Source: a virus
Virus record (IMG/VR): IMGVR_UViG_3300030012_001865
Span: 30,286 to 94,285 of that record
DNA length: 64,000 nt
Direction: 5' to 3' (one strand)
The notes below the pieces were generated by a model, which saw only the letters and a program-made list of their open reading frames with translations, was not told the origin of the DNA and did no database searches. Below, piece by piece: positions 32,917 through 52,117 of the stretch (positions are counted from its first letter, which is position 1; the number at the start of each line of letters is the position of its first letter). Both the position numbers and the translations under genes were made by a program.

Positions 32917-33363
32917 CTAATCTTGACAAGCTACAAATACTTCAATTTGTATTGTACCACTACTAGATTTTGCAGATATAACATCTATATTAGCTAAACT
33001 TTCTCCTGTACCAAGAGCAGTATCGCCGTCTTCGTGCCCATCCATCATGTTATTTCCTAGTAAGAAATGATCTTCTGATTCTAATTTTACAAAATATTCT
33101 GAATCTGACTGACTTACTCTTAATGTAATGTCTGCAGATCCATCTAAGTTTGTAATACGTAAGTATTGCACAGAGTTATCTTTAAATGTGCCTGCAGATG
33201 CAGCCGAATCAAATTTAACTACGTCTACATATGCTGTACCTACATCCATAATTCTATGTGATACCTCGTTTACAGTTTCAGTGTGTGTATTTGTTGTACC
33301 TCTATCAGTACTACCATCTCCCATAGAGACAGTTTCAGTCAGTGTTATCGTTAAGTTTGCCAT
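32917..33363 (-). CDS. Small beta-rich virion protein, distant paralog C of 8189/8597
   Basis: MANLTITL..., Y..ITNLD, FVKL...FLL, IEVFVA pattern. Confidence 0.55.
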   Translation of the reverse strand: MANLTITLTETVSMGDGSTDRGTTNTHTETVNEVSHRIMDVGTAYVDVVKFDSAASAGTFKDNSVQYLRITNLDGSADITLRVSQSDSEYFVKLESEDHFLLGNNMMDGHEDGDTALGTGESLANIDVISAKSSSGTIQIEVFVACQD

Positions 33364-33499
33364 TGTCTATAATTATATAAATTTGTATTAATCCTAAAAA
33401 AAATTGTACCTCATAATAAGGTGCATACTCTTCTGGTTGGAAGTGTCTTACTCCAAATAATAATCCTTTTGCCCAATTTATTCCAAAAGCGAATTTCAT
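33335..33499 (-). CDS. Small hydrophobic protein (54 aa), not in track
   Basis: TAATG coupling with the upstream cargo gene; MKFAFGINWAKGLLFG...FFLGLIQIYIII. Confidence 0.45.
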   Translation of the reverse strand: MKFAFGINWAKGLLFGVRHFQPEEYAPYYEVQFFLGLIQIYIIIDNGKLNDNTD

Positions 33500-36400
33500 T
33501 AATTGTTGTTACCGTATAAAAATTTAAGAGAGTTTTCTACATCTCTATCGAACTGTTTAAATATAGGTAGTATGTCTCTAAGTTCTTTACCTATCTTTGT
33601 TCTACCTTTTCTTTTACCTCTAGTATAAGTTTCAAAACCTCTTCCAGTTGCTAGTCTCGGTATCTCCTTTCCAAAAAATCTTAAAAATAATTCTATTGCA
33701 TTCTCAAGCATGCTTACAGATGCTGCAGGGCTTCTCATAATTCTTACTAGCTCTACAGGGTTTACATAGAAAGATAATTCAGAATATAATCTACGTACAA
33801 AAAATGATCCGTAAAGTAAAAGTTTTTTCTCATCGTCACTAGGCGCTGCTTTAGCTGCAGCTAGTAATAGTGCACTACTTACTCCTGATAAAATCATTTC
33901 TACAATATATATTGTAGCTCTACGTATATCGCCTCTTTCTCTTTCTGACAAAGTATTCCATCTATCTGCTTTTAGCTCTGCTTTTAAAAGTTCTCCTTGA
34001 CGTATTAGTGTTGACACGTACCTCACAGCTTCTGTAAACATACCAAACTGAAAGTCTTCAGACTGTCTACTATAATCTAGATCATCCATGCGTAGGTCTT
34101 CTCTAGGTGTAAACATTTTATCTGCACCTCTATATTTTTCTAATCCTCCAGGAATTAACCATCTACGCAGGGCAAATGCAGCTCTACCTAGTATATATCT
34201 CTGTGCTAGCGCATTATTTTTGCTAGTATAGTTACCGTTAACATAATAATTTAGTTCAAATAAATGTCGTGTTACTTTAAACTCTGCATCAGCTAAGTTA
34301 TTATTTTTTACATTTATAATCCTTCCTGTTTTAAATACTAGAGCTCCTATGTCTAGTCCTTCTCGAACTTTAAGTTTCTTTTCTTTCGCTTCGTAAATCT
34401 CGTCAAACGACATCGCTTGTTTTCTATCTTTTACGACTTTCCCCTCCTTATTTATATATTGCCCTTTACTGTTTTGTATTTTTATTGCATTTAAAAAAGA
34501 ATACATTAACAAATGTTGTACATAATGTTCTCCCATTTGGTGGAATGCATGCAGTGTACTTTTATCAGCGCTTTGACTAAGTTTAGTTGCAGCCATAAAT
34601 CTTTTTAACGCAGGACTCCAATCTTGCTCTGCCTGAAACCGTTCTCCTAATAAGTTTGTTAGAGCTCCAGGTCTCATTAAACCTATATCTCCTAGTATAT
34701 TAGGTAAATCAATTCCAAATTTGTATTCTGCATCTATTATGTCTCCAAATCCATACTCTACATCAAAGTACATACCGCTCATAGCGCGCATAGATTGTAT
34801 AGTTTTAGATTGAAACACGGAGGCAAGGGCAGAATAATGGTTAAATATAAGCATAGTATCAGATGTCCATGCCATCAAGCTGCTAGCTAATTTATTTAGT
34901 TTACCTGATCCTATATTTTTAACACCATACAATCTATCTTCTATTACAGATGATAGATTTTTGTATACGTTAGAAGCTACACCATCTTCCATTTCAAAAG
35001 ACAGTTTATCCTCACCTTTTACTTTTATTTTCTGCGCTTTCTTTTTTCCCCAATGTGATTTTCCTACTTTACTAGCTCCCACCACTTGTTTTAATGTTTC
35101 TAGTTCTGCTTGTACGTAAGAACTTTCTTCGTAGTTTACAGATCCCCAATAATCCATTAACAATATTGATGGTAAGTCATAAGACTGTTCAGACAAAGGT
35201 ACTTTGTCGTCCTGTCTATAGTATACAGGTATTTTTTGTTGCACTTGGCCGTATTCATTTAGTGTTGTATACATTAGTGCTTTTACCTGTTCCCATTTAC
35301 TTATGTCATCTGAGTTGTCTTGACCCTTTTCATAATAATCAATATCAGATGCTGTAAGTGTAAAGTTATCTTTGTATATTCTTTTTATAGCTGGTATCAG
35401 ACCGTCTTCAAAACTAGTCTCCATTAATGTTTTTTGTATTGCGGGTAATTTTAATCCTCTTCTGTTAGGATACATCTCATCTCTTTCTGTGATCATGTCA
35501 CGAAAGAACCAATACATTTTGTATTCTATTTTATTTTTATTTTTTTCATCAGCAAAGAATGCAAATCTAGGATCTATCCATTTGTCTGCTACATTATATT
35601 TACCAGACTCTTTATCTCTACTTTTTACATTTTCATTGTACCATTCTATGTATTCTTTTTTAGCTTCTATGTATTGGTAACTGTTTATACCATGCTCGTT
35701 CTGAGCTTTTATCATAGGATCTAAAAACTTTTTTCTTTCTGTCCAGAATTCAGGTTTGATTTGGTCTACTAAAAACTTTGTAAGTTTACCACTTTCTTCT
35801 CTACCAATCATGTCTCCCCACAAACTACGCATGTCTCTAGTATTTTTACCTTTAATATACTCAGACCACAATTTTTCTAGTTCTGTAACTTTTTCTACAG
35901 TTCTACGCATTGTTAGATAATCCTTCTTATCTAAAATCTCTGCAGCTAAAGATATTATATCATCTCCCATGTTACGAGCGTCAAGCATGTAGTGTGCAAA
36001 TCCAGATATATCTTTAGGATTATCTTTTAGTATACGCATATAGTTATCTACTTCTGCTTGCCTAATCATATCTGCATTACGCTCCATTTGATCTGCCACA
36101 AACTTAGCTCTAGCTTCTTGATATAGTTTACGTGTTTTAGTTCTACTACCGTCTAGCGCATTATCTTTTAGGCCTTTAGATTTTCTCCATTGTGTGTATG
36201 TTACACCACCTTTTTTAGGATTAGCAAAATCATCTGAGTACATTCTAAAATATGTCCTAGTTACTTTTCCAGGAATAGACCCCCATTTATTTGCAATGGC
36301 TTCTCTAGCTTTAAAATTAAATCTAGATTGTACAGATGCTTTGAGTGCTAGTATTTTTTCAAAATCTATACCTTTACCACCTGTATTATCTTTTGTAACA

Positions 36401-37089
36401 TACAAGTTTAGATCTCTTTCTTTAGATACAAGTTCTATTACTTCATCTACAGTATTTATAAACTTTAGTCTTTGATCATACTCATAGATTGTAGCTATAT
36501 CTAGTGCTCCATCTATTTTTAGAATCTGCTCTGCATTTTTTAGCAGCTGTTGTACAGTTTGCAAGTAAGATTTTAGAGCGACTCTATCATTAAATTTTTC
36601 TAGCTGCGCTGCTAGAGCTTCTAGATCTGCCACATATTTAGACCTCATGTAGTCTATACGTATTTTACGGGCTTCTTCTACAGACGTAGCATTTTCTATC
36701 TTACTCTGCAGCTCTTCGGCCCCCATCATTTGTATTTTCTTAGCAGTTCTTAAGTTTTTTACACGAGTCTTAACTCGTTTTACAAGATCTTCTATTATTT
36801 TATCCCGTGTTGCCTCCTGATATTGTGTTCCTAACAGTAATGTAGATTCTTGCTCTATTTCTATTGCAATCTCATTACTATCTATAACTTCAGCTACAGC
36901 TTTTATTGTAGGATAGCCAAACTCATCTAGTCTAGGGTCTTCTTTAGAGAATGTCCCTGCATTTACAGCAGATAACCAGTCACCAAACAAATCTATAAAC
37001 TGCGGCGAGTGTACAAAGTCAAATACAGCTTCTGCACTATCTTTAAATCTAGCGCTATTGTCTAAGTCTATTTTTAATTTACATGCCAT
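33499..37089 (-). CDS. Large ejected cargo protein following the virion RNAP
   Basis: About 1196 aa, helical; ATG 37089 (MACK); F...FGDW..LDE.G.P N-terminal motif; last of the three-gene RNAP block typical of crAss-like phages. Confidence 0.8.
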   Translation of the reverse strand: MACKLKIDLDNSARFKDSAEAVFDFVHSPQFIDLFGDWLSAVNAGTFSKEDPRLDEFGYPTIKAVAEVIDSNEIAIEIEQESTLLLGTQYQEATRDKIIEDLVKRVKTRVKNLRTAKKIQMMGAEELQSKIENATSVEEARKIRIDYMRSKYVADLEALAAQLEKFNDRVALKSYLQTVQQLLKNAEQILKIDGALDIATIYEYDQRLKFINTVDEVIELVSKERDLNLYVTKDNTGGKGIDFEKILALKASVQSRFNFKAREAIANKWGSIPGKVTRTYFRMYSDDFANPKKGGVTYTQWRKSKGLKDNALDGSRTKTRKLYQEARAKFVADQMERNADMIRQAEVDNYMRILKDNPKDISGFAHYMLDARNMGDDIISLAAEILDKKDYLTMRRTVEKVTELEKLWSEYIKGKNTRDMRSLWGDMIGREESGKLTKFLVDQIKPEFWTERKKFLDPMIKAQNEHGINSYQYIEAKKEYIEWYNENVKSRDKESGKYNVADKWIDPRFAFFADEKNKNKIEYKMYWFFRDMITERDEMYPNRRGLKLPAIQKTLMETSFEDGLIPAIKRIYKDNFTLTASDIDYYEKGQDNSDDISKWEQVKALMYTTLNEYGQVQQKIPVYYRQDDKVPLSEQSYDLPSILLMDYWGSVNYEESSYVQAELETLKQVVGASKVGKSHWGKKKAQKIKVKGEDKLSFEMEDGVASNVYKNLSSVIEDRLYGVKNIGSGKLNKLASSLMAWTSDTMLIFNHYSALASVFQSKTIQSMRAMSGMYFDVEYGFGDIIDAEYKFGIDLPNILGDIGLMRPGALTNLLGERFQAEQDWSPALKRFMAATKLSQSADKSTLHAFHQMGEHYVQHLLMYSFLNAIKIQNSKGQYINKEGKVVKDRKQAMSFDEIYEAKEKKLKVREGLDIGALVFKTGRIINVKNNNLADAEFKVTRHLFELNYYVNGNYTSKNNALAQRYILGRAAFALRRWLIPGGLEKYRGADKMFTPREDLRMDDLDYSRQSEDFQFGMFTEAVRYVSTLIRQGELLKAELKADRWNTLSERERGDIRRATIYIVEMILSGVSSALLLAAAKAAPSDDEKKLLLYGSFFVRRLYSELSFYVNPVELVRIMRSPAASVSMLENAIELFLRFFGKEIPRLATGRGFETYTRGKRKGRTKIGKELRDILPIFKQFDRDVENSLKFLYGNNN

Positions 37090-37091
37090 AA

Positions 37092-40000
37092 TTAACAAAT
37101 GTCTCTCTCAGGATTAATATTTGTAGGTTTTTTATCTACTTTAACTGCTATTTCTCTTAAGCTGTTTTTAAATTCTCTATAACTTGCTAATTGGAACTGT
37201 TTTAGTTCTATTTTAGGGTCATTTTGCTCAAAGATACTATAATTTACTTTCTTTTCTGCGTAACCATCAGGATCATATCTATACTCATTTACAGTATTAC
37301 CTTTAGAGTCTTTAAATCCTAGCGGAGATATAACTTCGTATACAGGATTTTTAATTGTTTGTCCTTCTACTGTTGAATATTTTAAACCAATTAATTTATA
37401 TGTCAAACTTCGTATAGCTCTAGTTTTTGTGTAGATAGGAGTTCCGTCGTCTTTGTATCCCATTATTCTAGTCTCTATTTCTCCTAGCACATTGCTTTTT
37501 ATAATAGGAGCATACACAACTTTACCATCTGCTCGTCTTCTTTTTACAGCCTCTTTGGCTCTACCTGTAAGAGTTATACTAAGTTCTTTTTTAAACGGTA
37601 CAAACTTACCTTTTGCATCTGTAAATCCACTATTTTTAATATCTCGCTGAACTTTTTTAGGCTTTGTACCAAGATCTGTAACCATTCTAGGGTTATCTGT
37701 GTTATGACGTAGAATTTGTTCTACCATATCATCTATAGATAATAAACTTAAGTCAGAAAGGTCTTGTTTTACATATTCTGCAAATCCGCTGCTTTTATTC
37801 CATGTCATAGGTATGTAAGAGTGGAAAGAATTTTTATTATTATTAAATCCAGACACAAAAAACGCCATATTAACTAGTTTTATTGCAAACTTTCTTGTCT
37901 TAGGATCTATATATAAGTCTTCCCATTCCTGCACAGCTAAGTTGCGTATCTCAGGCGGCACGCTCTTAAGTCCTCTAGCGTATACATAACTAGGTAGTTC
38001 ATTTTGTCCAAACGCCTGCAATTTACTGCTTAGTAATTTATTTAACAGTATATTATCAGGATTATCTTTTTGCATTTTTCTAAATTCTACTACAAAAGAA
38101 GCGGCTTCTGATTTAGAAAATAGTAAGTTTTGCATACCAAACTCTTCTGTACTTGCTAGCTGGAATCCAGAATACAAATACGTGTACATAGTGTCCACTA
38201 GTTTTTGTCTGTTTAGAACGTTATCTGTCATTAATGTTACATCTAGTAATTTATGTAACCCTTCTACCATAAAATCAGACTCTGATAAGAATTCGTCTTG
38301 GAATGTATCTAATATATAGTCTACGTACTGGTGCGCAACACCCATAAGAGTTAGCCCGTCCGCACTGTTGTTTTGGTACTTACTGCTAAAGTTTAAAAAT
38401 CTAGGATCTTTTTCTAGAGATTCTTTTTTCTCTTTTTTCATCCTAACTTCTGTAAGGTTTCTACCAAGGCCTGTAGATATAAGTCTAGAGCCTAGCATTT
38501 GTTCTAACACTGCTTCTCCATGCTCGTTTAGTCTTAAGAATTCATCAAGAATAAACTTTTGCATGTCAAAATAATTATTTTGTCCCTCACCAAAACGCAG
38601 CAAGTCTTCTAGAATTGGTATTGTTATTTCTTGTGTAGCATTTACTTCTTCTACAACTACATCTTGCTCTTCCACTTCTAGTGTAGTTTCATCTAATTCT
38701 GCTATCTCATCGGTCTCTTCTTCTACCTCTACAGGAGCTTCTTCTACTTCACGTGTTTTAGGGAAGAAATCTTTTTTAGTTTTATTTAATGCTTTTCTTT
38801 TTATTGCACTGTTAGTTAGCTGCCTATCTGTAAGAGCTTCACTATCTAGTGAGAATAAATTGTCTACATATTCTCTAATTACAGGTTGTGCTAGGAATCT
38901 ATTTACCCATTTGTAGTTTACACCTGCACGTAATAATAAGAATGCTACGTTTACAGTGTGTGTGTTAAAGTTTACATACGATATATACGGATCTTTTTCA
39001 ATATCCACGTTTGCGTTCATGTATGCAGATATAACTTGCGTAATAAGCATGTCGTCGCCTATAACATCATTTCTAGATAAATCTGTATATTGTACAAGTT
39101 CTTTGTTTTTAGTTCCTATACCTATGTGTCCGTATCCTATATATTCTGTCAGCTGTAATCCTGCAAGCGCAGATGGTATATGGTCTACAATATTATTTGC
39201 TACAGACCCTACCATTTTCTTACCCATTAAGAATCTAGTCTTTAGTGAGTCCTGGTATACAGGGCCAAAGAATTTAAGATTAGTCATAACCTTATCATCT
39301 CTTCCTGCAAATGCCATTTCGTATACAGCATTAGCGTCATTCTTTAAGAATCCCGTATCTGTAGGGAATAGTAACTCGCCGCTTTTTTCTGCGTTCTGCA
39401 GTATAGATTCCCATACTTGTATTCTTTTGTTTTCTAATCCTTCCTTAGTTTCGTCTACAACTTTTCTTCTTAACTTGCCTTCTGTAAACTCTAAGTGTGG
39501 CACTAGTAAAAATATTTTATCAATATCGAAGTCACTACCTGTTAATGTTGTCATACCGTCAAACACTACAATAGAGTCTCCTGATCCTTTAGGTAGTATT
39601 CCTGCTATTTCCATAGAGAATATAGATGCTATGGATTGGTTTGGTATACGATACCCTAACAGCTGTAATGCATCTTTATCTATTAATGACTGTAATTCTG
39701 TATCACTAAGTTCTTCTACAGATCTACCATCTTTAGGTTTTATTTTATCTATAAACTCATACGGTAGTAGTATTTGTCCAGGAATTATTTTTTTATTTTG
39801 TAAATCTAGTTGCGGCGCTTTTAGATTTTTTGTATCTATAATCCACCTGATTCTGTTTCTCTCATCCTTTTTTAACTCAGAGTACCTCGCAGAGTCTTGC
39901 CCCAGCCCGAATCCAGTTATCTGCACAAACTGTCCTCCAAGTGCCTTATATAGTATAGACTGTTTACTTAGTGCGTTTGTCAGTGCGCTTTGCAAACCTC

Positions 40001-43000
40001 TTCTGTCTTGGAACATAGCGTCTAGTGGTATAGTACCGTCTTCTAGACCTTTTATCATGTTATCATTTTGTGTATCTAGATAACGCTGCATTAATTTTGC
40101 ATGTAACTTAGAGTGATCTGCTATACCAGGATCTAAAAAGTCTTCGTTAAGGCCGTGTTGCTGTGCAAACTTTTGTCTACCTAGCTCTGCTATCTTAGCT
40201 TCATTAGTATAGTAATCCTGTAATAGTTCAGCACCGCTGTTGTATCCAGGATAAGCTGCATCTAAATCTATATTAGATAGCACAATTTGTTTAGGCTGAG
40301 AACCTACTATTGTAGATGTAAATCCTTTTGTAGGTAGCTCTTGTGCTAGGCCCATCATTTCATGATTCTCTAAAGAAAAGTCTAGGTCAAAGTCATCATT
40401 TATTACACCATCAGTATCTATTTTAGTTACACTTTTTGCTCCTGCTTTTATAGCACTAATTACAGCAACCTGTGCTCCTACAATACCTTCATCAGTTGTG
40501 TTCTCTTTTTCAAACGCCACCATTTTATCATACAGTGATTTTAGTGGTGTTGTTTCTACCAGATCAGGCCAGAGAACTACATATGCAGTTTTTTCTATTC
40601 TAGGTACATTATATTGCCCTTTAACATTAGTACCTCTAACTGTAAACTTTTGCGGTGTAAAATTAACTTTTTTATAGTCACCTTTTTTAGCTTTTCTACG
40701 CATTATACGGTCAAAAGCTTTTTCTCTAGCATCAGGCCATCTGCCTAGCCCTCTTTCTCTTTGTCTAAATAACTCAGGTGTTATCCATGTAGTACCATCG
40801 GTAAGATCTACTTCTTCAAACATCTGTGCTATGTCTTTTCCTAATGCTTTTGTCCATTTAGGATCTGTAAAGAATTCACCAGGACTAATTATATCAGTTA
40901 CAGTTGCATGGTAATATTTAGGATTTATAGCCCACTTACCTTTGTGCTTGTATATTCTAAATCTTTGTGTAGGTGTAGTAAAGTGTCCTGAACGTTTAGG
41001 TACATCCTCCATAGATTTATACATTGCAGGGTGTCCTACAAACATACCCATGGCTTCTCTTGCAGCTATAATACTGTTAAATACATAGTCACCAAATGCT
41101 CTTGCAGATATTTGTGTGCTAAGTGTATTACCGTCTTTACCTCTTCTAGATTTAAAAGATTGTATTAGATTACTATCGATTGCTTTTGCAATTAGTACAC
41201 CTTGTTTGTCTTCAGAATATACGTCGTATTTTTTAGCTAACTCTAAACTTTTTATAAACTCAGATTTAAAAGCATCTTCTATCATCTTTTTTACTTCAGG
41301 ATCGTTAAGAATCTCTTCTGTAAGATGCATAGGTAAATTACGAGTGTACTGTGTGTCTGATGCGGCTTTGTGGTAAAGTTGTAGCTTCTCTGCTAGCGGC
41401 GTACCATATGCTAAGTCGGGGAACATCATAGTCTCTCCTTTAAATACATTACCTGTTGGTAATTTAGTTTCAGGATCGATGAATTGCTTTGTCCCATCTT
41501 TATTTAACTTGTAATGGTAGTTTAGATACAACTCATCTTGAGGTAGTCTATCTCTACCAAACACGTGGTTCCAGGCCTGTCTTTGTGACTCTATGTCTGC
41601 TACTATATATCTTTGGAATGTAGAGATAACATTGGTGTTACTAAAAGTAACTTCGCCGTTTGCATACTCTACACCAGAGTCTATGTTTTCAGGGCCTTGT
41701 AGATAGTGTTGTGTGCTAGATGTACCTGTAGATACAGTTGTATACTGACCGTTTAATACTCTAGTTATATTATTTATCATTGCATCAGCCCCTGTAAGGT
41801 ATGTATTCTTTTTACCTTCAGATTTAGTAGCTACGTTTACCATATGAAGAAACTGCTTTATTGCAAAAGCGTTGTCTTCATTTTCTAATAACCAGTTTAT
41901 CCATACAGATGTTTCTGTGTATGGTAACTTTTTTAGTTGCTCTACATAAGACTTATCGCCTTTTTGTATTCTTAATACTGCTGTGTGCAGGTAAGAATAC
42001 ATACCGTATTTCCAATACAATGTAGCGCCAGGTCCTAGTACAGTAGTTTCTAGCAAGTCTGCGTCGTACACACCTTGTGCTGTAGAGAAAGGCCTAATAG
42101 ATTTCTCATCAAACATGATAGAGTTTATGTTACCCTCTTGGTCCTCTAGTACAGGAAACGATCTGCCTTCTTTTGTTGCTTTGTGTTTGTCTATAAGATT
42201 CTGTAAACCCAGCGAGCCTTTACGTGTACTACCTAAAAATACATATTTTAGACTTGACATTAATTTATTGGCTTCTATTGCAGGGTTATCAGACTGCTTA
42301 AATAAATACTCTAGCGCTACAGGGTCCGCCTGTATACCAATTGTATTCAATACTTTTGCAAACACCTGCGCTATAGGTTTTAACTGTATATCAGCTTCTG
42401 TAAGATCTTGTATGTTTGTTTTCTTTGCTTTAACTAGTGCCCGCTTGTAAACTTCTTTTAGTTTCTTATTAAATGCTGTGTAAGCGGCCACTGCTTTTTC
42501 TGCATTTCGTACATCTAATATTCTTTTACCTACTTGATTAGGTTTAGTCATCAGCTGCTCGTAGGCTATCTGCCAATTGTCTCTAATGTTTTTCTCACTA
42601 GATTGTACGTCAGGGCTTCCTATTCTTGTACCTGTTCTAGAAGTACCATCTACAAATGTAGTTGTATAGTCTAGCTCTGGCCGCATAAATGCTTGCACAA
42701 ACTGTGTCTTCTTATACTGCGGCGCTCTTTCTAGCATTGCTACAAGCTCGTTAAACTCAGGGTGGAATCCTTGCACATCTTTTAATCTTTCTATCATCAT
42801 CTCATATACATCTACAGTAGGGTCCGAAGAGTATATGTTACTTAGATACTGCATTATAGTTGCATATGTTTTTGTAAGATCTACTAAGGTAGGTTTACCA
42901 AGTGTCTTACTCATAACAGGTACAATTTTACCGTCTTCAAATGTAACGTTAAACAAACTTCTAATCATAAGCTTAACATTTGCTGTCAGCTTTTCTTTAG

Positions 43001-43784
43001 GATTACTAAAGTGTGCGTCTTTTACATTTAACGCTGCGGTTTTCTCATCTTCTTTTAGTTCTATTCTAGTTTCTCTACTCATTCTAGAGAATACCATTTC
43101 TAATAGTTGTGACGAGTTTACAGGATCTTTAGGATTGTATCTAGGCACAGGCATATTATTCTCATCAAGCAGAGGTACTCTGTTACCATCTTTATCCTGT
43201 ACATCTTTACGTAGATATACTATGTCTTCAAAAATTTGCTGGTATAATCTATATGCTTTAGTTCCTTTTAGCTGTGGATTTTTTCTTAGTTGTATCATGT
43301 GTGCTGCAGCCCACTCACCAAAAAATCTGTAGTCTAGGTTTTTAACATCGTCAAAGTCTTGTACCTGGTACCGTTTATTTTTTACAAATGCTGCAGACAA
43401 AACATCAACTGCTTCTTTTATTTCTGCAGGTGTCATTCCTGGTATACGGGTTAGGCCTACAGGATACATGGCTGTAGCAGACTCTAGGTTAGAATCAAAT
43501 ATATACCATCTCTTTGACTGTTTTGTTTCAGGATCTATACTTACATAAAAGTTTTTAAATATCTGCGGTTCTCCGTTTTCGTCTACGTTATTACCAGACT
43601 CACTCTCTGCAAACCATTTATTAAAATCTTCTTGTTGTGTTATAAGATATGTATTATATGCTCTCTGACCATCTTGATTATATATATCATAGAGTTTTCC
43701 AAACAGTAAAGATGTTTTACCATTAGGTGCTAATACGGATTCTTTACCGCTCTTAAACGATTCGTCTAGTAAATTACACTTCAT
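37092..43784 (-). CDS. Virion-packaged RNA polymerase (crAss-like, double-psi beta-barrel)
   Basis: 2230 aa; catalytic TGSDFDIDK (~39515-39545), GYRIPNQ, TDGTTWITP, A.VD..KDP. Confidence 0.92.
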   Translation of the reverse strand: MKCNLLDESFKSGKESVLAPNGKTSLLFGKLYDIYNQDGQRAYNTYLITQQEDFNKWFAESESGNNVDENGEPQIFKNFYVSIDPETKQSKRWYIFDSNLESATAMYPVGLTRIPGMTPAEIKEAVDVLSAAFVKNKRYQVQDFDDVKNLDYRFFGEWAAAHMIQLRKNPQLKGTKAYRLYQQIFEDIVYLRKDVQDKDGNRVPLLDENNMPVPRYNPKDPVNSSQLLEMVFSRMSRETRIELKEDEKTAALNVKDAHFSNPKEKLTANVKLMIRSLFNVTFEDGKIVPVMSKTLGKPTLVDLTKTYATIMQYLSNIYSSDPTVDVYEMMIERLKDVQGFHPEFNELVAMLERAPQYKKTQFVQAFMRPELDYTTTFVDGTSRTGTRIGSPDVQSSEKNIRDNWQIAYEQLMTKPNQVGKRILDVRNAEKAVAAYTAFNKKLKEVYKRALVKAKKTNIQDLTEADIQLKPIAQVFAKVLNTIGIQADPVALEYLFKQSDNPAIEANKLMSSLKYVFLGSTRKGSLGLQNLIDKHKATKEGRSFPVLEDQEGNINSIMFDEKSIRPFSTAQGVYDADLLETTVLGPGATLYWKYGMYSYLHTAVLRIQKGDKSYVEQLKKLPYTETSVWINWLLENEDNAFAIKQFLHMVNVATKSEGKKNTYLTGADAMINNITRVLNGQYTTVSTGTSSTQHYLQGPENIDSGVEYANGEVTFSNTNVISTFQRYIVADIESQRQAWNHVFGRDRLPQDELYLNYHYKLNKDGTKQFIDPETKLPTGNVFKGETMMFPDLAYGTPLAEKLQLYHKAASDTQYTRNLPMHLTEEILNDPEVKKMIEDAFKSEFIKSLELAKKYDVYSEDKQGVLIAKAIDSNLIQSFKSRRGKDGNTLSTQISARAFGDYVFNSIIAAREAMGMFVGHPAMYKSMEDVPKRSGHFTTPTQRFRIYKHKGKWAINPKYYHATVTDIISPGEFFTDPKWTKALGKDIAQMFEEVDLTDGTTWITPELFRQRERGLGRWPDAREKAFDRIMRRKAKKGDYKKVNFTPQKFTVRGTNVKGQYNVPRIEKTAYVVLWPDLVETTPLKSLYDKMVAFEKENTTDEGIVGAQVAVISAIKAGAKSVTKIDTDGVINDDFDLDFSLENHEMMGLAQELPTKGFTSTIVGSQPKQIVLSNIDLDAAYPGYNSGAELLQDYYTNEAKIAELGRQKFAQQHGLNEDFLDPGIADHSKLHAKLMQRYLDTQNDNMIKGLEDGTIPLDAMFQDRRGLQSALTNALSKQSILYKALGGQFVQITGFGLGQDSARYSELKKDERNRIRWIIDTKNLKAPQLDLQNKKIIPGQILLPYEFIDKIKPKDGRSVEELSDTELQSLIDKDALQLLGYRIPNQSIASIFSMEIAGILPKGSGDSIVVFDGMTTLTGSDFDIDKIFLLVPHLEFTEGKLRRKVVDETKEGLENKRIQVWESILQNAEKSGELLFPTDTGFLKNDANAVYEMAFAGRDDKVMTNLKFFGPVYQDSLKTRFLMGKKMVGSVANNIVDHIPSALAGLQLTEYIGYGHIGIGTKNKELVQYTDLSRNDVIGDDMLITQVISAYMNANVDIEKDPYISYVNFNTHTVNVAFLLLRAGVNYKWVNRFLAQPVIREYVDNLFSLDSEALTDRQLTNSAIKRKALNKTKKDFFPKTREVEEAPVEVEEETDEIAELDETTLEVEEQDVVVEEVNATQEITIPILEDLLRFGEGQNNYFDMQKFILDEFLRLNEHGEAVLEQMLGSRLISTGLGRNLTEVRMKKEKKESLEKDPRFLNFSSKYQNNSADGLTLMGVAHQYVDYILDTFQDEFLSESDFMVEGLHKLLDVTLMTDNVLNRQKLVDTMYTYLYSGFQLASTEEFGMQNLLFSKSEAASFVVEFRKMQKDNPDNILLNKLLSSKLQAFGQNELPSYVYARGLKSVPPEIRNLAVQEWEDLYIDPKTRKFAIKLVNMAFFVSGFNNNKNSFHSYIPMTWNKSSGFAEYVKQDLSDLSLLSIDDMVEQILRHNTDNPRMVTDLGTKPKKVQRDIKNSGFTDAKGKFVPFKKELSITLTGRAKEAVKRRRADGKVVYAPIIKSNVLGEIETRIMGYKDDGTPIYTKTRAIRSLTYKLIGLKYSTVEGQTIKNPVYEVISPLGFKDSKGNTVNEYRYDPDGYAEKKVNYSIFEQNDPKIELKQFQLASYREFKNSLREIAVKVDKKPTNINPERDIC

Positions 43785-46700
43785 TATTTACAAGGTGTTT
43801 GATCATCTTCTTCTAAATTACTCATATCTATATCGCTATCAATATCATCTAGCGCTTCTAAATCGTTCATCCAAGAAGGTTCGTTATTATCTTGCTCAGG
43901 TAAAGATTCTCTCTTTACTTCTACTTCTTCTACTATGTCATCTATCTCTGGAGTTACCTGCTCTTCTACAAGAGATGCAAACATTGCTGCATTAATAGCT
44001 GCTTCTGTTTCTTCTACAGACATAGTAGTATTAAGGTCTGTTACAATTTCATCTGCTGCTTCGCTTTCTTCTGCTTTAGTAATACCATCTTCTATCATTT
44101 CTTGTTTTACAGACTCCATTAGTATTTCTCCTGCATCATCGTCTTCAACACTTTGCAACTCAAGTATAGGAGGTTTCTCCTCTTTAACTTCTTTTGCATA
44201 CTCTGTAGGACTATTTATTACAGACATTCTAATACTAGGTTGTATAAACGGTGAACCTGTAGCTCTGTGTGTAAATGCACTAGTATTTACAACTAAATTT
44301 TCAACAAGCAAATCTACGTAATTAGGATCAGAAGTTCTAGACCGTTGTACATTAAATCTTTTATTTTCTACAAACCAGTCAATAATTTTTTCTTTATTAT
44401 TTTCTATGTCTTGCGCACTGTAAGATTCTACAGATATTATACCCTCGGTTTCATTAGCTATTTTTAATAAATTATTTTTTACATCAAATCTAAACATATG
44501 TTTGTCTGTAATTTGATCATTTTCATATACTAGCATGTTTAGTAGCTCAGAGAATGTAGGCGTTAGTTCACTATTACTTATGTAACTAAATAAGCTTTGC
44601 ATAAACTCTGCCTGATCTCCAAAGTCTCGTGTTTTTATATAGTCATTTATCCACGCTTCTGATACAATATCATTTAGTAATATTTTTTTAGATATTCTGT
44701 CTGTGTATATGGTATACAGCAACTCAGCAACTGGCCTGTTCAAGTTTTCTATAGATACACGTAGTGGGAATATAGAACCATTGTTCATTCGTATAGGCAT
44801 GTATACTGCACCTTTTGTATCAGGATTTGTAGCGTATAAACTTAACTCAGGATACGTTCTACCAAAAGCATCTACATATTCACTACCATCGTTAAATACA
44901 AATATAACTTTCTGATCTCTAACTCTAGGGTCACCATTGTTTAACACTGTAGCTAAGTTATTCTTTTGTCCCTTACGGGTATCTAAATGGCCGCCGCTCA
45001 TAGCTTCTATTTTTGCAGTGGCTTGTTTATCTTTTTGGTACAGATTATAAAAGTCTCTTCTAAAATCTTTTAACTCTTGCATTGCTTGATCCCATTTACT
45101 AGGGTCCATGTTACTAAATATGTACGGCTCTTCGTGCATATAAAATGTAAGAGTAGTTCCTTCATTTGTTGTAAGCGTACCTTTTATAGGTATTACTTTT
45201 AACTCTTCGTCTGTTAGATCTTGTTTATTTTTAAGTTTATTTACAGTTCCTCTAGGATACTGTCCGCCTTCACGTAGTTCTATATAATCAAAATCTATTT
45301 CCCATACAATATCTTTATCTTGTTGGGTTATGTCTCCTGTGTTAGGATTCTCTAAGTAGTTAGATGTAGTTGTATCTGTACCAGGAGTGTTGTTAAAAAA
45401 GTTTCTTACAGATTTCCACGCAGCTGTAAGTATGCTTTGTAGTTTTACAGGTTTGTCTTTTTCTATACCTGCCTGCAGAGTGTCATCTTCTTTAGATATT
45501 ATTACTTGTAAATTTTCGTTTTCTTCTGCAGCTGTGTCATTAGAAGGTACTTCAGGATCTCTTTCTGTAGCTTTATTAGTAGTCTGTATAGATTCGTTAA
45601 CTGTAGCAGATCTCTGCGCTTTTATTACATCTTTCTTTAGTATTCTACCATTCTTACCAGTACCCTGGATATTAGATATATCAATATTATTAGCATCAGC
45701 ATAGGCTTGGGCAGATGGTGTAATATTAAGCTGATTTGGTCTAGGAGATTCTTTTTTACCTTCAGCCTTTACCTCTGCATTGTAATATGCGTTAATTTTA
45801 TTATCATATTGACTAAGTAACTCTTTGTTTAGAATTTTATTAATACTTTCTTCAATTTGTGATAATTCAGCGGGACTGTAAGGTCCTCCTTCTTCTAAAA
45901 ACTTTTTAGCCATTATCCTTTCTGCTATAGTAGCATTAGGATCTAATAATTTTATTTGTGCCTTATATTTATTAACTATATTTTTTCCTTTTGCAGATTC
46001 ATTAGCAGCACGAATTAATTCTCTTCTATATCTTGCTTTATCTCTTTTCTTTACTGCATCCAACTTCATTTGAGTAGCTTCATCAAATGATAAAGTCTCA
46101 AGTTCTTCTTGCATTTTTTGCTCTAAATCAGATACATTATCTACTTGATTTGGCGTAGGAGGATCTTCTTTAGATCTTTCGTTACTCTCTTTATTCTCTT
46201 CATTTTTTGTTGCATTTTCAGCTGCTTCTCCGCTTTCTACAACAGATGCTATTTGTTCTTCAGCTTTTTTTATAGCCTCATCTCTTTCGTCTAATGCTTT
46301 TTTAGCTTGCTCAAATTCTTTTGCAGGATTATTATATATACCTGTAATCATTTCTTGGAATGCTTGCAGTTCTCTAGCTAATAATAAACCATCTGCAAAC
46401 AAATCAAACAGCTGTTGCATTTCTAAATCATTTAGATTTATTTCTGCACCACTCATTTGTTCTAGTTGTTCTACAAATTTGCTAAACACTTCTTGCAAAA
46501 CTTTAGAATCATTTAAATCTTTTTTAGTAAGTTCTAATCCTTTGAACCCTTCCATGTTTACAATACCAGCTGTAAGATTTAGAAGCGCCGTATTTATATC
46601 ATCACTACGTCTGTCAAAATCTTTAGACATGTAAGAATAGTATGCTAGCTTTTGTTCTATCAGCGCTAAAGTCTGTGCATTTACATTAGGATCGTTAGAT

Positions 46701-49333
46701 AGTTTACGTGCTATCTGCGGCATCATAGCTGCTATACCTTCTCTTATAGGCACAAGATTGTCTTCGTAGTCTTTTATTCTTTCTCTTAAAAAATTAACTT
46801 CTTTTTGTACATCTACTTTAGTTACAGGTAACCCTAGAGGATCGTTAGGATCTGTTTGCTCTCTACCAAAAGTTTCAGCAAATTGCTCATCAGACATATT
46901 AGATATGTCATCTAGCATTTCTAATAATATATCTATTTGCCCTGTTTCAGAAAACAGTTCTATAGTTTTAAATATTTTAAATGCCTCGTCTGTTTTTAAT
47001 TTAAATATATCATTTTTTTCTAGAGCTTCTCTTTGTCGTTGCTCTGACTTAGTTAGACTTGCAAGATGATGTATATGTTTTAAAACATCTCCTCCTTCCT
47101 GCACCGCATTTATATCATCAACAACTTTTTTAGTTCTTTCGTATTTTTCTTGATAATCTTGCCACTCTGTAGGTGTGCCTCTAAAATATGATCCACCAGC
47201 TTCACCTAGCTTACCTAATAATGCTCCTAAAAACATAGCTTGTTGACCGTGCAGTTCTTGTGGTGTTTGCCACCATCCTTTAGCCATAGATATTCCCATA
47301 CCTATACCACCGTCTATAACATCTGATATATCATTTAAATCAGGTGTGTATTCATGAGTAAAATAATCTTTTGCACCTCTTTCTAGCGCATACTGTATCC
47401 ACTCTTCGTTCATTTCTGCTAGCGGACGTTTCCACCAGTTCTTAGCCCATTCTTTTACCCATCCTGCTTTGCCTAATTCTTTAAATATAGTTTTACCGCC
47501 TTGAGTTGCTATTCTAGCCTTAAGGTATTTACTAAATAAATTAGTTGAGCCTCCCCCAAATAAATTTTTAAACATTATAAGGTTAGACGCTCCAACGACT
47601 ACAACATTTAAACCCCACGCTATATTAGCATAAGCCTCTGCTGTGTCTCTTATGTCTTGCTCAGACATACCTTGATACCTAGGGTCTCCTTCAGCTTGTA
47701 GTTTTGTAATAAGATCTATAGAGTTTTTAAGAATCATGTTAGCCTCAATAGAAGCTTCACCAGCTGCAGATATTAAACCTGCACCTATATAATTAGCCTT
47801 TGCTAATCGTGCAGACGTCATACCTGCTCCTTGTATGGATCTTCTAGCTAGTTGAAATCCGCCAGATATAGTAGACTTTCTAAACATAGCAGTTGCAGCT
47901 CTAGCGTAGTTTTTAGGATTAGCAATTTTCATCATTTTTGCTAATCCTTGTGCTACTTTTAATTCTGCAGCTACACCCCCTGTTGCAGCAGCACCTAATA
48001 AAAATCCTAAACCATCCATACCTTGGTCTGCCCAAAAGTTTGCTGTACCGATACTTTGTAACAAAGACATTTCTTCTTCAGCTGCAGATTTATGTATAGG
48101 GTATTCTTGCTTATACCATTGTTTAAACTCAGAAAATATTTCGTTACCAGGGTTATTAAATACACCACTGAATCTGCCTTGAGACCATGCAGAAGGTATA
48201 CCAACCATAAGTGTATTAGTTGTGCTTAAAGATACTTCAAGAAAAGAACTTAATAAATTACCAATACCTCTAATAAATTTATTAGCGTTTGTTTGTTTTA
48301 GCGCAGTCTCTTCTTTTATATTAGTACCTGGATATATATCTATACCGTAATCACCAAACAATGATAAACCTGTTCTAGCTTCTCTACGTATAGCAGCTTC
48401 AGACTTGCTTTTCCCTATAGGAAAATACATATCCATAGGGAATTCACTTGTTACCCCTACAGGCAATATTCCAAATATACCGTCTTTATCACTTTTTATT
48501 ACAAAGGGCGTTCTTTCGTTACTGTAGTGTTCGTAAGGATTATCTACATATCTACCAAAGTCTTTACCTTCTGTAACTTCAAAATTAGAAAAAGTATTTA
48601 AACCTGTTGTTTTAGGTTTTTCTACAATAGGAGACTCACTCATAGCCTCTTCATAGGTAGTACCATACTTTAAAAAGAATTGACTTTGTGGGCCTATTTC
48701 CATCATGCCATTTTCATCTACAAGATCGTCGTAAGCTTTAGAGTATCCTTCTGCAGTATTATAATCATTGTGTTTATAAGAATCTTTTACGCCATATATA
48801 GGAAACCCTTCTTTTTTAGTTACATCGCCTTCTTGATGAAAAGGCTGATCATCAGCAGGACCGTATACAGTATCAACTGTTTCGGGATTATTAAATTCTA
48901 AATGAAAATGTGCCTGCCCCTCGCGGGTTCTTTCGTCTATAAGCTCAGCGTTATGTCTTCTTAAAAAGTCTGCACCACGTTGACTTAATTTTGTAGCTTC
49001 TGCATCATCAAAGAAATAGTTTACAATATCTTTACCATCTCCTTCACTGTATCTAACACCAAAATCTATAGCGTTACCGTGGTTGTGATGTGAACCTTCA
49101 TCTCCATGTCTATGTGCACTAGTGATTGTAAAGTCTGTGCCTGCAGAAGATGCTAATTCCATCAAACCTAAGCCTGCGTATTTACCTACTTCTGGTCCAG
49201 TAACACCTCTTAAATTTATAGAAGATATTGGAGTACGAATATCTGTTTCAGGTAAATTAGTTAGAGGATCTAAAGTTTGCGTATTCTGTATTGGGTCCGC
49301 TACAGGTAAGTTTAAGTCACTTATTTTAACCAT
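43784..49333 (-). CDS. Large ejected cargo protein with N-terminal M15-like peptidase, hydrophobic helices and an E3-binding domain
   Basis: 1849 aa; ITSAHR..SHH.HGNAIDF...HFHLEF; Gly/Ala-rich membrane-like segments; ITPSAQAYADANNIDISNIQGTGKNGRILKKDV. Confidence 0.8.
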   Translation of the reverse strand: MVKISDLNLPVADPIQNTQTLDPLTNLPETDIRTPISSINLRGVTGPEVGKYAGLGLMELASSAGTDFTITSAHRHGDEGSHHNHGNAIDFGVRYSEGDGKDIVNYFFDDAEATKLSQRGADFLRRHNAELIDERTREGQAHFHLEFNNPETVDTVYGPADDQPFHQEGDVTKKEGFPIYGVKDSYKHNDYNTAEGYSKAYDDLVDENGMMEIGPQSQFFLKYGTTYEEAMSESPIVEKPKTTGLNTFSNFEVTEGKDFGRYVDNPYEHYSNERTPFVIKSDKDGIFGILPVGVTSEFPMDMYFPIGKSKSEAAIRREARTGLSLFGDYGIDIYPGTNIKEETALKQTNANKFIRGIGNLLSSFLEVSLSTTNTLMVGIPSAWSQGRFSGVFNNPGNEIFSEFKQWYKQEYPIHKSAAEEEMSLLQSIGTANFWADQGMDGLGFLLGAAATGGVAAELKVAQGLAKMMKIANPKNYARAATAMFRKSTISGGFQLARRSIQGAGMTSARLAKANYIGAGLISAAGEASIEANMILKNSIDLITKLQAEGDPRYQGMSEQDIRDTAEAYANIAWGLNVVVVGASNLIMFKNLFGGGSTNLFSKYLKARIATQGGKTIFKELGKAGWVKEWAKNWWKRPLAEMNEEWIQYALERGAKDYFTHEYTPDLNDISDVIDGGIGMGISMAKGWWQTPQELHGQQAMFLGALLGKLGEAGGSYFRGTPTEWQDYQEKYERTKKVVDDINAVQEGGDVLKHIHHLASLTKSEQRQREALEKNDIFKLKTDEAFKIFKTIELFSETGQIDILLEMLDDISNMSDEQFAETFGREQTDPNDPLGLPVTKVDVQKEVNFLRERIKDYEDNLVPIREGIAAMMPQIARKLSNDPNVNAQTLALIEQKLAYYSYMSKDFDRRSDDINTALLNLTAGIVNMEGFKGLELTKKDLNDSKVLQEVFSKFVEQLEQMSGAEINLNDLEMQQLFDLFADGLLLARELQAFQEMITGIYNNPAKEFEQAKKALDERDEAIKKAEEQIASVVESGEAAENATKNEENKESNERSKEDPPTPNQVDNVSDLEQKMQEELETLSFDEATQMKLDAVKKRDKARYRRELIRAANESAKGKNIVNKYKAQIKLLDPNATIAERIMAKKFLEEGGPYSPAELSQIEESINKILNKELLSQYDNKINAYYNAEVKAEGKKESPRPNQLNITPSAQAYADANNIDISNIQGTGKNGRILKKDVIKAQRSATVNESIQTTNKATERDPEVPSNDTAAEENENLQVIISKEDDTLQAGIEKDKPVKLQSILTAAWKSVRNFFNNTPGTDTTTSNYLENPNTGDITQQDKDIVWEIDFDYIELREGGQYPRGTVNKLKNKQDLTDEELKVIPIKGTLTTNEGTTLTFYMHEEPYIFSNMDPSKWDQAMQELKDFRRDFYNLYQKDKQATAKIEAMSGGHLDTRKGQKNNLATVLNNGDPRVRDQKVIFVFNDGSEYVDAFGRTYPELSLYATNPDTKGAVYMPIRMNNGSIFPLRVSIENLNRPVAELLYTIYTDRISKKILLNDIVSEAWINDYIKTRDFGDQAEFMQSLFSYISNSELTPTFSELLNMLVYENDQITDKHMFRFDVKNNLLKIANETEGIISVESYSAQDIENNKEKIIDWFVENKRFNVQRSRTSDPNYVDLLVENLVVNTSAFTHRATGSPFIQPSIRMSVINSPTEYAKEVKEEKPPILELQSVEDDDAGEILMESVKQEMIEDGITKAEESEAADEIVTDLNTTMSVEETEAAINAAMFASLVEEQVTPEIDDIVEEVEVKRESLPEQDNNEPSWMNDLEALDDIDSDIDMSNLEEDDQTPCK

Positions 49334-49336
49334 AGT

Positions 49337-52117
49337 TTATTGTATTTGTATTCCAGATAACAAACTCTGTACTTGTGCATCACCATCAAAGATTCTGTAT
49401 ATTAAAGCCTCTAAACTAGGAGCTTCTGTTTCACCATTTTCAAATTCTATTGGCGTTATATTACTTGCAACTCTCAAGTTTTTATCTGCATCACCTGTTG
49501 GTCTATAGAAATACATAGAATATGTTTCAGACATTGGCTGTGCAGTAACTGCTTCTCCAGCATCTATATCTCTACCTGCCATAAGTCTCTTACGTTCTAT
49601 ACGTAGTTGATCTGTAGTAGGATCAAATAATAATTCTCCAGTTTCTTTATTTCTTATAGGCCCTTGACTTAACATTTTAGGATCTAATACTCTAAACTCA
49701 AACTCATCATTGGTAGAAGTTACTATACTCGATGTAGCAGTTTCTATACCTGATGCCTGTAGCGTTGGCAAGTATTGCATGTTTAATCTCATCTGTACAC
49801 CTTGAGCCACTCTTTCTGCACCTATTTGCTGTGCTCTTTGAGTTGTCATACCTTGTGATCTAGCTTCATCTGGATTAGTATACAGCTGTTGCCCTTCAAA
49901 TATATATTGATCTGCTAATGAATTATAAGCGCTTACAGATTTATCAGCATCCATAGTTATAATCATTTTATCTAATTGATTTATATAATCACCTACATTT
50001 TTACCAACTGTTGCTAGATTGTTAAGCATAGAGAAAGGTATAGGTTGTGGCTCTTTGTTTCCAACTTTATACCATTTAGGATCTAATACAAAGTATGGTT
50101 TACCTTCAAACAATCCTTCACCTAAGTATAGCTGTGGAGCCCAAGAGGTAGATACTCTAACCCCTTCTGAATCTATTTGTTCTCCTGAAATTGCTCCTCT
50201 AATTTTCTCAAAAGCATCAGCGTAAAGTTCTTGAACAGATCCTGCATCAGGTTGTAACATGTCCATGTAAGGACCTCCTTGATTAGTTACAAAGTCACTA
50301 CTTCTTCTTTGTGTTCTATTATATTCTTGGTTATCTGTGTCTGCAGTAGGTTGATGATATGTAAACTGTCTATCTACATCTGTTATATTTTCAAAGCGCT
50401 CAAACTTATTTGCATAATCTTTATATAATCTTAGTACATCGCCAGGTATGTTAGCTCCTATTAACTCTTCAACACCAGTTACCGTATAATCTTCTATTAA
50501 TCTATCTAGATCTACTTCACTATAGTCAAATAGATACTGTGTAATAAGTTTAAAGTGGTTATGTAACGCTGCATATGCTGCAATATCATCATCAGAGAAC
50601 TGTGCTCTTTCATTGAATTCATCATAAAATGCTTTAGTCTCAGGAGATAATCTTTCCATTGCCTTTTCACCTATGGCTTTTCCAAACTTAGTGTAGTCTA
50701 ATATATTTTCCAAAATAGTTTTATCTTTTAAAGTACCTGTTTTTAGAGGGAACTCTAACTTAGCAAGGTTATCTAGATCTGTTTGTATTGCAGTTATCTC
50801 ATCGTTAAACGCTTGCGTTTCTTCAGGCCCTACATTTCCTTGTTCTAATTTGGTTTGTAAGTCTGTAAGTCTAGCTTTTTTGCTTCCTACTTCAGCTTGG
50901 TAGTCTTCATAATTAGTTACTCTACCTGTAGCATCTCCTAAAGGAATTTGTTGTGTGTCATAACTACCTCCTAAAGGTATACTATATCCTACTGTACTAG
51001 TTGATCCATCTTTACCACCTGCACCTGTCATAGATATTCTATCTACTGCGCTTACACCAGAACCAGCTGCAATCTGATCTAACAATGCTTCTCTTTGCAT
51101 AGTTCTAAATTGATTAGATGCCGCTTCATTTTCTCCTACACGTAAGATTTCATCTCTTATCATGTTTTGTTTTATAGGTAGATTCTGATTGTATTGCTCA
51201 GGACTATCTACGCCTGCCATTTGCATTTGCATAAGAGCTACCAAAGGGTCATCTGACAATGGCAGTACTGTAGGATCTTTTTGTGAGTACAATTCAAATG
51301 CGCTTCCGTGCATGTCAGGATTGTATTGTTCTACTAATCCTAAGTCGTATGCTTCATTTGCCCAGTCTCTATACTCAGGCATTGCATTTAAGAATCTATT
51401 TGTAAGTTCTCTAGCTCCTTCAGCTGTTGTATACTCTCTTTTTGTAATTACATCTTTGTATCCTACTATGGTTTGTCCATCAGGACCATATTTAGGTTCC
51501 ATGTTTACACTAGAGATTTGATTTTTATTTATCATCTCTTGTATCTTAAACATGTCATCAGTAACATTCTCAGGATGGAATTGTACAGGACCTCCTGTAA
51601 ATTCTGTTCCTTGTGGCATTCTATCTATTTCACCTGCTTTAAATGCTTCTAAGTTTTGATTATACATTTGTGTTTGCTTAGCAAGCATAGCGTTAGCTCT
51701 ATCTTGTGTATACAATTTTTTAGTTACACCGTCTTGTAAAGCTGCTCTCTGGTTTTGATATGCTTGACCAGCTTTCTTTAATCTTTTACCTGCGTCAGAC
51801 ATACCTGTATAATAATCGTATGTTAACTGTTGCATAGGAGCAGCCATTTGTGTAAGATCTCCGCCTGATGCTTCATATAACTCATTCATACGATCCATAT
51901 AAGGTTTTGTAAGAACAGACGCCTCGTCTTCTGTACCAGGTATTACTGAATACGAATCTAGTTCTTGCATAAATGCTATATTAGACTTAGCTGTTGCATC
52001 GAACAGTTGTTCTTGTGCCAAGTTTCTTTGATATACTTCCTGATAAGGGTAGGGAGAGATTTGTGTCTGCTCCATTGGCCCTGCCATCATCATTCCTGTT
52101 AGTCCTCGTACTGCCAT
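49337..52117 (-). CDS. Ejected cargo protein
   Basis: 926 aa, Cys-free, between the muzzle-adjacent cargo gene and the RNAP block. Confidence 0.7.
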   Translation of the reverse strand: MAVRGLTGMMMAGPMEQTQISPYPYQEVYQRNLAQEQLFDATAKSNIAFMQELDSYSVIPGTEDEASVLTKPYMDRMNELYEASGGDLTQMAAPMQQLTYDYYTGMSDAGKRLKKAGQAYQNQRAALQDGVTKKLYTQDRANAMLAKQTQMYNQNLEAFKAGEIDRMPQGTEFTGGPVQFHPENVTDDMFKIQEMINKNQISSVNMEPKYGPDGQTIVGYKDVITKREYTTAEGARELTNRFLNAMPEYRDWANEAYDLGLVEQYNPDMHGSAFELYSQKDPTVLPLSDDPLVALMQMQMAGVDSPEQYNQNLPIKQNMIRDEILRVGENEAASNQFRTMQREALLDQIAAGSGVSAVDRISMTGAGGKDGSTSTVGYSIPLGGSYDTQQIPLGDATGRVTNYEDYQAEVGSKKARLTDLQTKLEQGNVGPEETQAFNDEITAIQTDLDNLAKLEFPLKTGTLKDKTILENILDYTKFGKAIGEKAMERLSPETKAFYDEFNERAQFSDDDIAAYAALHNHFKLITQYLFDYSEVDLDRLIEDYTVTGVEELIGANIPGDVLRLYKDYANKFERFENITDVDRQFTYHQPTADTDNQEYNRTQRRSSDFVTNQGGPYMDMLQPDAGSVQELYADAFEKIRGAISGEQIDSEGVRVSTSWAPQLYLGEGLFEGKPYFVLDPKWYKVGNKEPQPIPFSMLNNLATVGKNVGDYINQLDKMIITMDADKSVSAYNSLADQYIFEGQQLYTNPDEARSQGMTTQRAQQIGAERVAQGVQMRLNMQYLPTLQASGIETATSSIVTSTNDEFEFRVLDPKMLSQGPIRNKETGELLFDPTTDQLRIERKRLMAGRDIDAGEAVTAQPMSETYSMYFYRPTGDADKNLRVASNITPIEFENGETEAPSLEALIYRIFDGDAQVQSLLSGIQIQ

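Follow-up and report, generated by a model that had tools for sequence, protein, structure and literature searches.

Terminal cysteines at facing protein ends suggest a head-to-tail disulfide chain of cargo proteins in a marine crAss-like phage

The 64,000-nucleotide stretch of DNA analysed here (the window; positions 30,286 to 94,285 of IMG/VR record IMGVR_UViG_3300030012_001865) comes from a 94,285 bp virus rated complete by CheckV, a marine crAss-like phage. Among cultured phages, Cellulophaga phage phi14:2 (Crassvirales, Steigviridae) is closest to it, with RNA polymerases (RNAPs) that share ~25% protein identity. On the minus strand of the window five large genes lie head to tail and encode, in this order, cargo proteins of 1610 and 926 amino acids (aa), protein A, a predicted virion RNAP and protein B. 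Cysteine is almost absent from this block, and the few residues that occur are placed where the C-terminus of A faces the N-terminus of the RNAP and where the C-terminus of the RNAP faces the N-terminus of B. Comparative evidence strongly supports a putative head-to-tail link in the gene order A, RNAP, B, and a disulfide is the most likely type of bond between the facing Cys. We therefore regard it as rather probable that the three proteins are joined covalently by two inter-protein disulfides, with thread-like exit and reductive release as possible consequences. Following up an earlier note on this DNA, the analysis covers a tree-based count of gene fusions, a check of the windows around fusion junctions, a set of recoded gut loci and a shared N-terminal module.

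Cysteine is confined to the facing ends of three cargo proteins

The recount identified 4 Cys in the 7,811 aa of the five cargo proteins, namely residue 1848 of A, residues 3 and 2230 of the RNAP and residue 3 of B, in the terminal contexts ..TPCK* (A), MKC...DIC* (RNAP) and MACK (B), and none in the 1610-aa and 926-aa proteins. The earlier note had given the same four Cys, at the junctions in gene order, and had described the 926-aa protein and the largest upstream cargo protein (1610 aa from its ATG) as Cys-free; both statements were borne out exactly, and no extra internal Cys, which that note had said would speak against its reading, came to light. At a Cys frequency of 0.5-1.5%, 39-117 residues would be expected and the probability of four or fewer is at most 1e-12, while the chance that four uniformly placed Cys fill four facing 3-residue ends is ~2.5e-12. 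Cys is not scarce in further giant virion proteins encoded by this genome, which hold 7 in 1548 aa, 14 in 1127 aa and 55 in 2054 aa; the depletion is thus peculiar to the cargo block. The tail-cluster proteins upstream of the window, considered as possible carriers of an early Cys, were rejected for their 7-55 scattered Cys.

Near-total exclusion of Cys from a giant virion RNAP and its companions is shared with the N4-like phages, where the exclusion from the ejection proteins (N4 gp50; DEV gp71, gp72 and gp73) has been explained by passage through the periplasm (PMC11445570). The N4-like proteins, however, have zero Cys, ends included, whereas the crAss-like proteins keep those that face a junction; the proteins of the window depart from the Cys-free type of N4 gp50 in that only their interior is Cys-free and the four terminal Cys are conserved.

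The layout is identical in four IMG/VR relatives at 85% identity, and it recurs in phi14:2 and crAss001, whose homologous proteins are virion-packaged and follow the same order, and where the equivalents of A (Phi14:2_gp078 and gp47) were both matched by hidden Markov model (HMM) and those of B are Phi14:2_gp076 and gp49. In phi14:2, the sole Cys of Phi14:2_gp078 (1797 aa) is its last residue, the RNAP carries Cys 3 and Cys 2179 of 2180, and the sole Cys of Phi14:2_gp076 is at residue 3. In crAss001, the only Cys of gp47 (Cys 2339) lies at -3 from its C-terminus and that of gp49 at residue 5, and the RNAP, gp50, carries three, namely Cys 5, Cys 1334 and Cys 2404 (-9). Among the wider homologs, 10/10 A proteins have exactly one Cys, at -1 to -4, with C1848 invariant in the alignment; a single Cys at residue 3-4 is found in 17/19 B proteins, the N-terminus being short or doubtful in the remaining two, and C3 is invariant in the alignment; and nearly all RNAPs have two, one per end. 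Only 49 columns are invariant across 20 RNAPs of 19-42% identity; they include C3, C2230 and the catalytic DFDID motif (residues 1418-1422 in the window RNAP, D1418 to D1422 invariant). Internal Cys in the RNAPs amount to ~0.015%. All four terminal Cys match the catalytic motif in conservation. Loss of the terminal Cys in homologs, the outcome by which the earlier note had been prepared to be judged, was not what the relatives showed.

Next, 80 IMG/VR loci were read with their flanks, and the rule holds in nearly all that are readable with translation table 11. The layout is polar: no Cys occurs at the N-end of A or at the C-end of B, and 55/61 upstream cargo open reading frames (ORFs) in related loci contain no Cys. 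Twenty gut loci (L055-L084, mostly from sample 3300045988) fragment under table 11. With TAG read as Gln, a code chosen by the analyst that converts 30-70 in-frame TAGs per ORF, they yield A-RNAP fusions of 4,000-5,000 aa with a Cys at -3 or -4, and the downstream B, where it lies within the fetched DNA, has an N-terminal Cys. TAG as a sense codon is the only sensible reading of these loci and agrees with the recoding of stop codons known for crAss-like phages of the gut. A metagenome scan in which both Cys codons of the A/RNAP junction were left open returned two contigs, both TGT/TGT, and so provided no natural covariation data.

Two loci have interrupted RNAP genes. In L049:7430-15466, ~940 bp interrupt the gene inside the catalytic motif (..GSD / FDVD..) with no Cys at the break; the insert could be an intron or something else. 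In L071:7556-19550, an intervening 1161-aa ORF splits the RNAP into an N-terminal piece with Cys 4 and an internal Cys 1656 and a C-terminal piece (871 aa) with Cys 3 and Cys -1, which may be a true split with a newly gained Cys.

The location of these codons also raises the question of whether they act at the level of the nucleic acid, with TGT serving as a junction signal, for example in translational coupling, or whether Cys is simply tolerated at disordered protein ends. The four codons do lie ≤10 bases from the stop/start overlaps (TGTAAA, TGTAAT, TGTTAA and TGTAAA), and TGT exceeds TGC by 137:16, but the window background of TGT:TGC is already 67:20. Moreover, crAss001 gp47, encoded on the opposite strand and away from gp50, retains its C-terminal Cys with no gp50 junction at all; eight loci retain both Cys across RNAP-B gaps of 356-915 bp, with TGT and TGC both occurring; and the 1610/926 and 926/A junctions are equally tight and lack Cys. 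A junction signal also accounts poorly for the Cys-free N-end of A and C-end of B, and for the variation in Cys position (from -1 to -9 and from +3 to +7) and in the neighbouring codons. An absence of protein function is thus hardly credible; the nucleotide-motif reading was rejected, and the Cys signal is at the protein level.

The facing cysteines are lost when the genes fuse

The polymerase core was searched against the whole library, and of the 3,273 hits the best 150 representatives were analysed together with the earlier set, the architecture class being assigned from the position of the core and an HMM of B. Among polymerases without an added part, 97/107 have a Cys ≤8 residues from both ends, and the remainder mostly have a Cys slightly further in or are truncated calls; among RNAPs fused to neither A nor B, 105/112 carry one Cys no more than 10 residues from the N-end and another no more than 20 from the C-end. 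In A-RNAP fusions (28/28) and A-RNAP-X fusions (9/9), the N-terminal Cys is absent and the C-terminal one is kept, and a B downstream of an A-RNAP fusion retains its N-terminal Cys. RNAP-B fusions keep the N-terminal Cys and have no other terminal one. The A-RNAP-B fusions, which include P0059, P0110, P0115 and P0136, lack terminal Cys in 5/5 cases and have zero Cys in ~4,700 aa in 4/5; the window is not of this type, as it carries three separate ORFs with stop codons. In fusions of the RNAP with an SF1 helicase, the C-terminal Cys is found at the new C-end.

A single Cys within 250 aa of the projected junction was found in only 2/42 A-fused and 0/8 B-fused proteins, and this near-absence indicates that the facing pair is truly lost on fusion. 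A FastTree phylogeny of 157 cores requires at least 11 changes of state for the fusion with A and at least 4 for that with B. Phylogenetically independent pairs show the terminal Cys changing inversely to the A fusion in 7-8 of 9 (p about 0.008) and inversely to the B fusion in 4/4. An extended architecture follows the same pattern: the locus L012:4778-23876 encodes a putative four-member chain made up of an A-RNAP fusion (3890 aa, Cys -2), an extra protein of 1167 aa with Cys 4 and Cys -2, and B, a 1308-aa protein with Cys 4 only. P0162 (5456 aa), which has the architecture of the L012 A-RNAP fused to an extra C-terminal part, has zero internal Cys.

Which end would bond with which is a matter on which sequence by itself is silent, and the RNAP N-end might pair with its own C-end, A with B, or like ends with like in homo-oligomers. 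However, an A-RNAP fusion loses exactly the A C-terminal and RNAP N-terminal Cys, an RNAP-B fusion does the converse, and the extra member of L012 carries both Cys. Head-to-tail pairing is supported because no other pairing leaves complete pairs in every architecture, and a different arrangement is highly improbable.

Several of the polymerases have features of their own. P0018, P0019 and P0022 carry the C-terminal SF1 helicase domain and are Cys-free except at their ends, and P0018 has a weak, sub-threshold match to a 2OG-Fe(II) oxygenase. P0133, a full A-RNAP-B fusion, is an outlier with 10 internal Cys, and P0183 is another, with 7 Cys clustered at 4189-4252 that possibly form a zinc site.

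Furthermore, the first ~70 residues of the RNAP and of B are homologous, starting at the Cys (profile-profile hhalign, probability 93%, E 3e-7). The family pattern of this module is MxC...FGDW...GEP, the window RNAP lacking the letters FGDW. An HMM of the module matched 139 N-termini, 136 of them with a Cys in the first 8 residues; it matched 26/32 free polymerases and 0/17 A-RNAP fusions, as well as 0/30 A proteins and 0/61 upstream cargo proteins. Likewise, an FGDW-type motif is at the expected place in 43/115 unfused polymerases and in 0/42 A-fused ones. The module probably docks the C-terminal tail of the preceding protein.

Nature of the proposed link between the facing ends

A bond of the proposed kind has been observed in another phage family. 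In cyanopodophage A4 (Anabaena phage A-4L), a disulfide between gp27 Cys1715 and gp26 Cys5 was seen by cryo-electron microscopy (PNAS 2025, PMC12002296), and a check of the A-4L genome confirmed the layout, with gp27 (1717 aa, sole Cys 1715) and gp26 (1114 aa, sole Cys 5) encoded by consecutive genes. As in the window, consecutive giant ejection genes there encode an upstream protein with its sole Cys at the C-end and a downstream protein with its sole Cys at the N-end. The A4 system differs in having one link rather than two or more, in having no RNAP in the chain and in belonging to a T7-like podophage of another family; its authors treat the bond as a local stabiliser and do not describe a conserved rule or a loss on fusion (PMC12002296). 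By analogy, the bonded A4 pair is a direct physical precedent for the chain. As for the cultured crAss-like phages, the preprint on the phi14:2 RNAP reports that some phages have the three proteins as fusions and suggests proteolytic cleavage, and the crAss001 atlas describes inter-subunit disulfides in tail and portal-vertex proteins, leaves the cargo Cys unmentioned and considers cargo order likely to be controlled by packing and mutual interactions (PMC10172136). The public mass-spectrometry data for crAss001 virions comprise a non-reduced sample as well (PMC10172136). No description of the terminal-Cys rule for Crassvirales was found in the literature.

The proposed chain would form by the bonding of Cys1848 of A with Cys3 of the RNAP and of Cys2230 of the RNAP with Cys3 of B. 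With Cys excluded from the rest of the cargo, only these two facing pairs could form, and with the Cys lying within a few residues of the chain ends, the joint would be nearly as thin as a peptide bond. The product would be a pseudo-polyprotein of ~5,275 residues with the topology of the fused A-RNAP, RNAP-B and A-RNAP-B proteins. The disulfides would arise after docking, once the particle meets oxidising conditions; the three proteins could then pass the tail as a single thread, with their order fixed and their ratio set at 1:1:1, and the reducing cytoplasm of the host could separate the chain and free the polymerase. Both the thread-like ejection and the reductive release are steps that we infer. 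A broader form of this proposal, in which a terminal-cysteine code makes split and fused ejection polyproteins interchangeable and a disulfide thread of >5,000 residues, with additional members in certain phages, is pushed through the tail N-end first, with reduction both releasing and activating the polymerase, is tentative and, although possible, rather doubtful.

The disulfides may instead be real and only staple a folded cargo complex in the capsid, for stability, stoichiometry or co-packaging, with no role in thread ejection or redox release. Such a staple is consistent with A4, where the C-terminal helix of gp27 enters a cleft in the folded gp26 at the site of the bond, to which stabilisation of the pre-ejectosome is ascribed. 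A folded docking site would likewise suit the N-terminal module common to the RNAP and B. Nevertheless, the interchange with true peptide fusions, through at least 15 transitions in all, points to function as one continuous chain, and the Cys are at the extreme ends (-1 to -6 and +3 to +6), a placement that a folded interface does not require. We consider a purely structural role unlikely, even though the sequence data do not separate a thread with reductive release from a staple in the capsid.

A third possibility concerns the chemistry of the joint. What the sequence provides is paired thiols, and in a reducing cytoplasm of often anaerobic hosts these might be joined through a shared metal ion, held by two thiolates or by all four ends, or by some other covalent thiol chemistry; a Lys often flanks the Cys (CK). 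One Cys per end would, however, make a poor metal site, with no conserved His, Cys or Asp partner beside it, a single four-Cys site is contradicted by the pairwise loss on fusion, and the sole structure of such a pair, that of A4, shows a disulfide. A bond other than a disulfide is accordingly quite improbable.

Several observations weigh against a disulfide-linked chain. First, the Cys rule has exceptions: crAss001 gp50 has one internal Cys, and its C-side Cys is as far in as -9; the gut A-RNAP fusions tolerate 3-8 internal Cys; and the RNAP of P0001, 95% identical to that of the window, has Phe in place of Cys3 (MKF..), P0118 and P0161 being further rare RNAPs without one of the two Cys. The N-terminal module was detected in only 9/46 B proteins, which is probably a limit of sensitivity. 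Second, the cytoplasm in which the virions are assembled is reducing, and the hosts are in many cases anaerobes of the gut, which puts both the occurrence and the timing of oxidation in question. In the 94-kb genome no active phage thioredoxin or glutaredoxin was found, and an Erv/ALR sulfhydryl oxidase had no match there or in the control genomes, so that this last negative carries no information. A 111-aa ORF outside the window (G000:C1:5383-5718) has a sub-threshold thioredoxin fold and a signal-peptide-like N-end; lacking a CxxC, it supplies no candidate reductase or oxidase for the chain. Third, the crAss001 maps do not resolve the cargo proteins gp47, gp49 and gp50 (PMC10172136), and the preprint on the phi14:2 RNAP makes no mention of Cys. 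Fourth, A4 is an analogy and not a homology, A and B showing no sequence or fold similarity to gp27 and gp26: phmmer of A4 gp26-29 against the window proteins gave nothing at E ≤ 10, searching PDB sequences with profiles of A and B gave nothing relevant, and Foldseek of a weak AlphaFold model of B (predicted local distance difference test 63, predicted template modelling score 0.34) against PDB gave generic helical-repeat matches only, above E 0.009.

Taken with these points, the head-to-tail chain that the earlier note had proposed is strongly supported as to linkage and order, for which conservation, polarity, loss on fusion and the A4 precedent argue, while the bond itself in crAss-like virions is a prediction from sequence and analogy.

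The cargo block and what a chain would mean

The features of the block are listed in the table below. The RNAP start and the A stop share one base (TAATG).

Table. Features of the cargo block, with positions in the window
Feature	Position	Strand	Method
Cargo protein, 1610 aa from ATG, Cys-free; upstream of the putative chain, not a member	52122..56954	-	
Cargo protein, 926 aa, Cys-free; tight junctions on both sides, no terminal Cys	49337..52117	-	
Protein A, 1849 aa; first member of the putative chain, sole Cys penultimate	43784..49333	-	
TGT codon, Cys1848 of A	43790..43792	-	
Predicted virion RNA polymerase, 2230 aa; middle member, Cys only at 3 and 2230	37092..43784	-	
TGT codon, Cys3 of RNAP	43776..43778	-	
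TGT codon, Cys2230 (last residue) of RNAP	37095..37097	-	
RNAP N-terminal module, about residues 1-77, homologous to the B N-terminus	43554..43784	-	hhalign
Protein B, 1196 aa from ATG at 37089; last member, sole Cys at 3	33499..37089	-	
TGT codon, Cys3 of B	37081..37083	-	
B N-terminal module, about residues 1-64, paralogous to the RNAP N-terminus	36898..37089	-	hhalign

The window RNAP belongs with the Crassvirales virion RNAPs of the phi14:2 gp66 type, two-barrel enzymes with DFDxD in a giant homolog. It matches PDB 6VR4 at E 2e-86, and tblastn against phi14:2 gave 25.6% identity across 64% of the query. Both the phi14:2 enzyme (gp66 of Drobysheva et al., PDB 6VR4, which is GenBank Phi14:2_gp077) and its crAss001 counterpart are carried in the virion, and after translocation into the host they transcribe early genes; homology and gene position suggest that the window RNAP would likewise travel in the particle and reach the host cell.

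PHROGs and Pfam returned almost nothing for the five cargo proteins. Residues 1204-1236 of A (window 45626-45724) match the Pfam domain E3_binding (PF02817, peripheral subunit-binding domain) at E 4e-11; it sits in the variable middle of A and is odd for an ejected protein. At about residues 72-148 of A (window 48890-49120), ..SHHNHGNAIDF.. followed by ..HFHLEF.. resembles an H-x-D / H-x-H zinc site, and this LAS/M15 cell-wall peptidase-like motif at the N-end has no Pfam or PDB match. A conserved 148-aa ORF after B (32917-33363, minus strand), whose sole Cys is at -3, was rejected as a chain member; its Cys is absent or displaced in relatives (L007 and L008).

For annotators, the terminal-Cys rule helps to recognise members of the chain and to detect wrong start or stop calls. 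If true, a covalent end-to-end link would give a physical answer to how the order and ratio of the cargo are set, and its reduction in the cytoplasm would be a natural trigger of release. Such a chain would also explain why the cargo genes of these phages fuse and split so freely.

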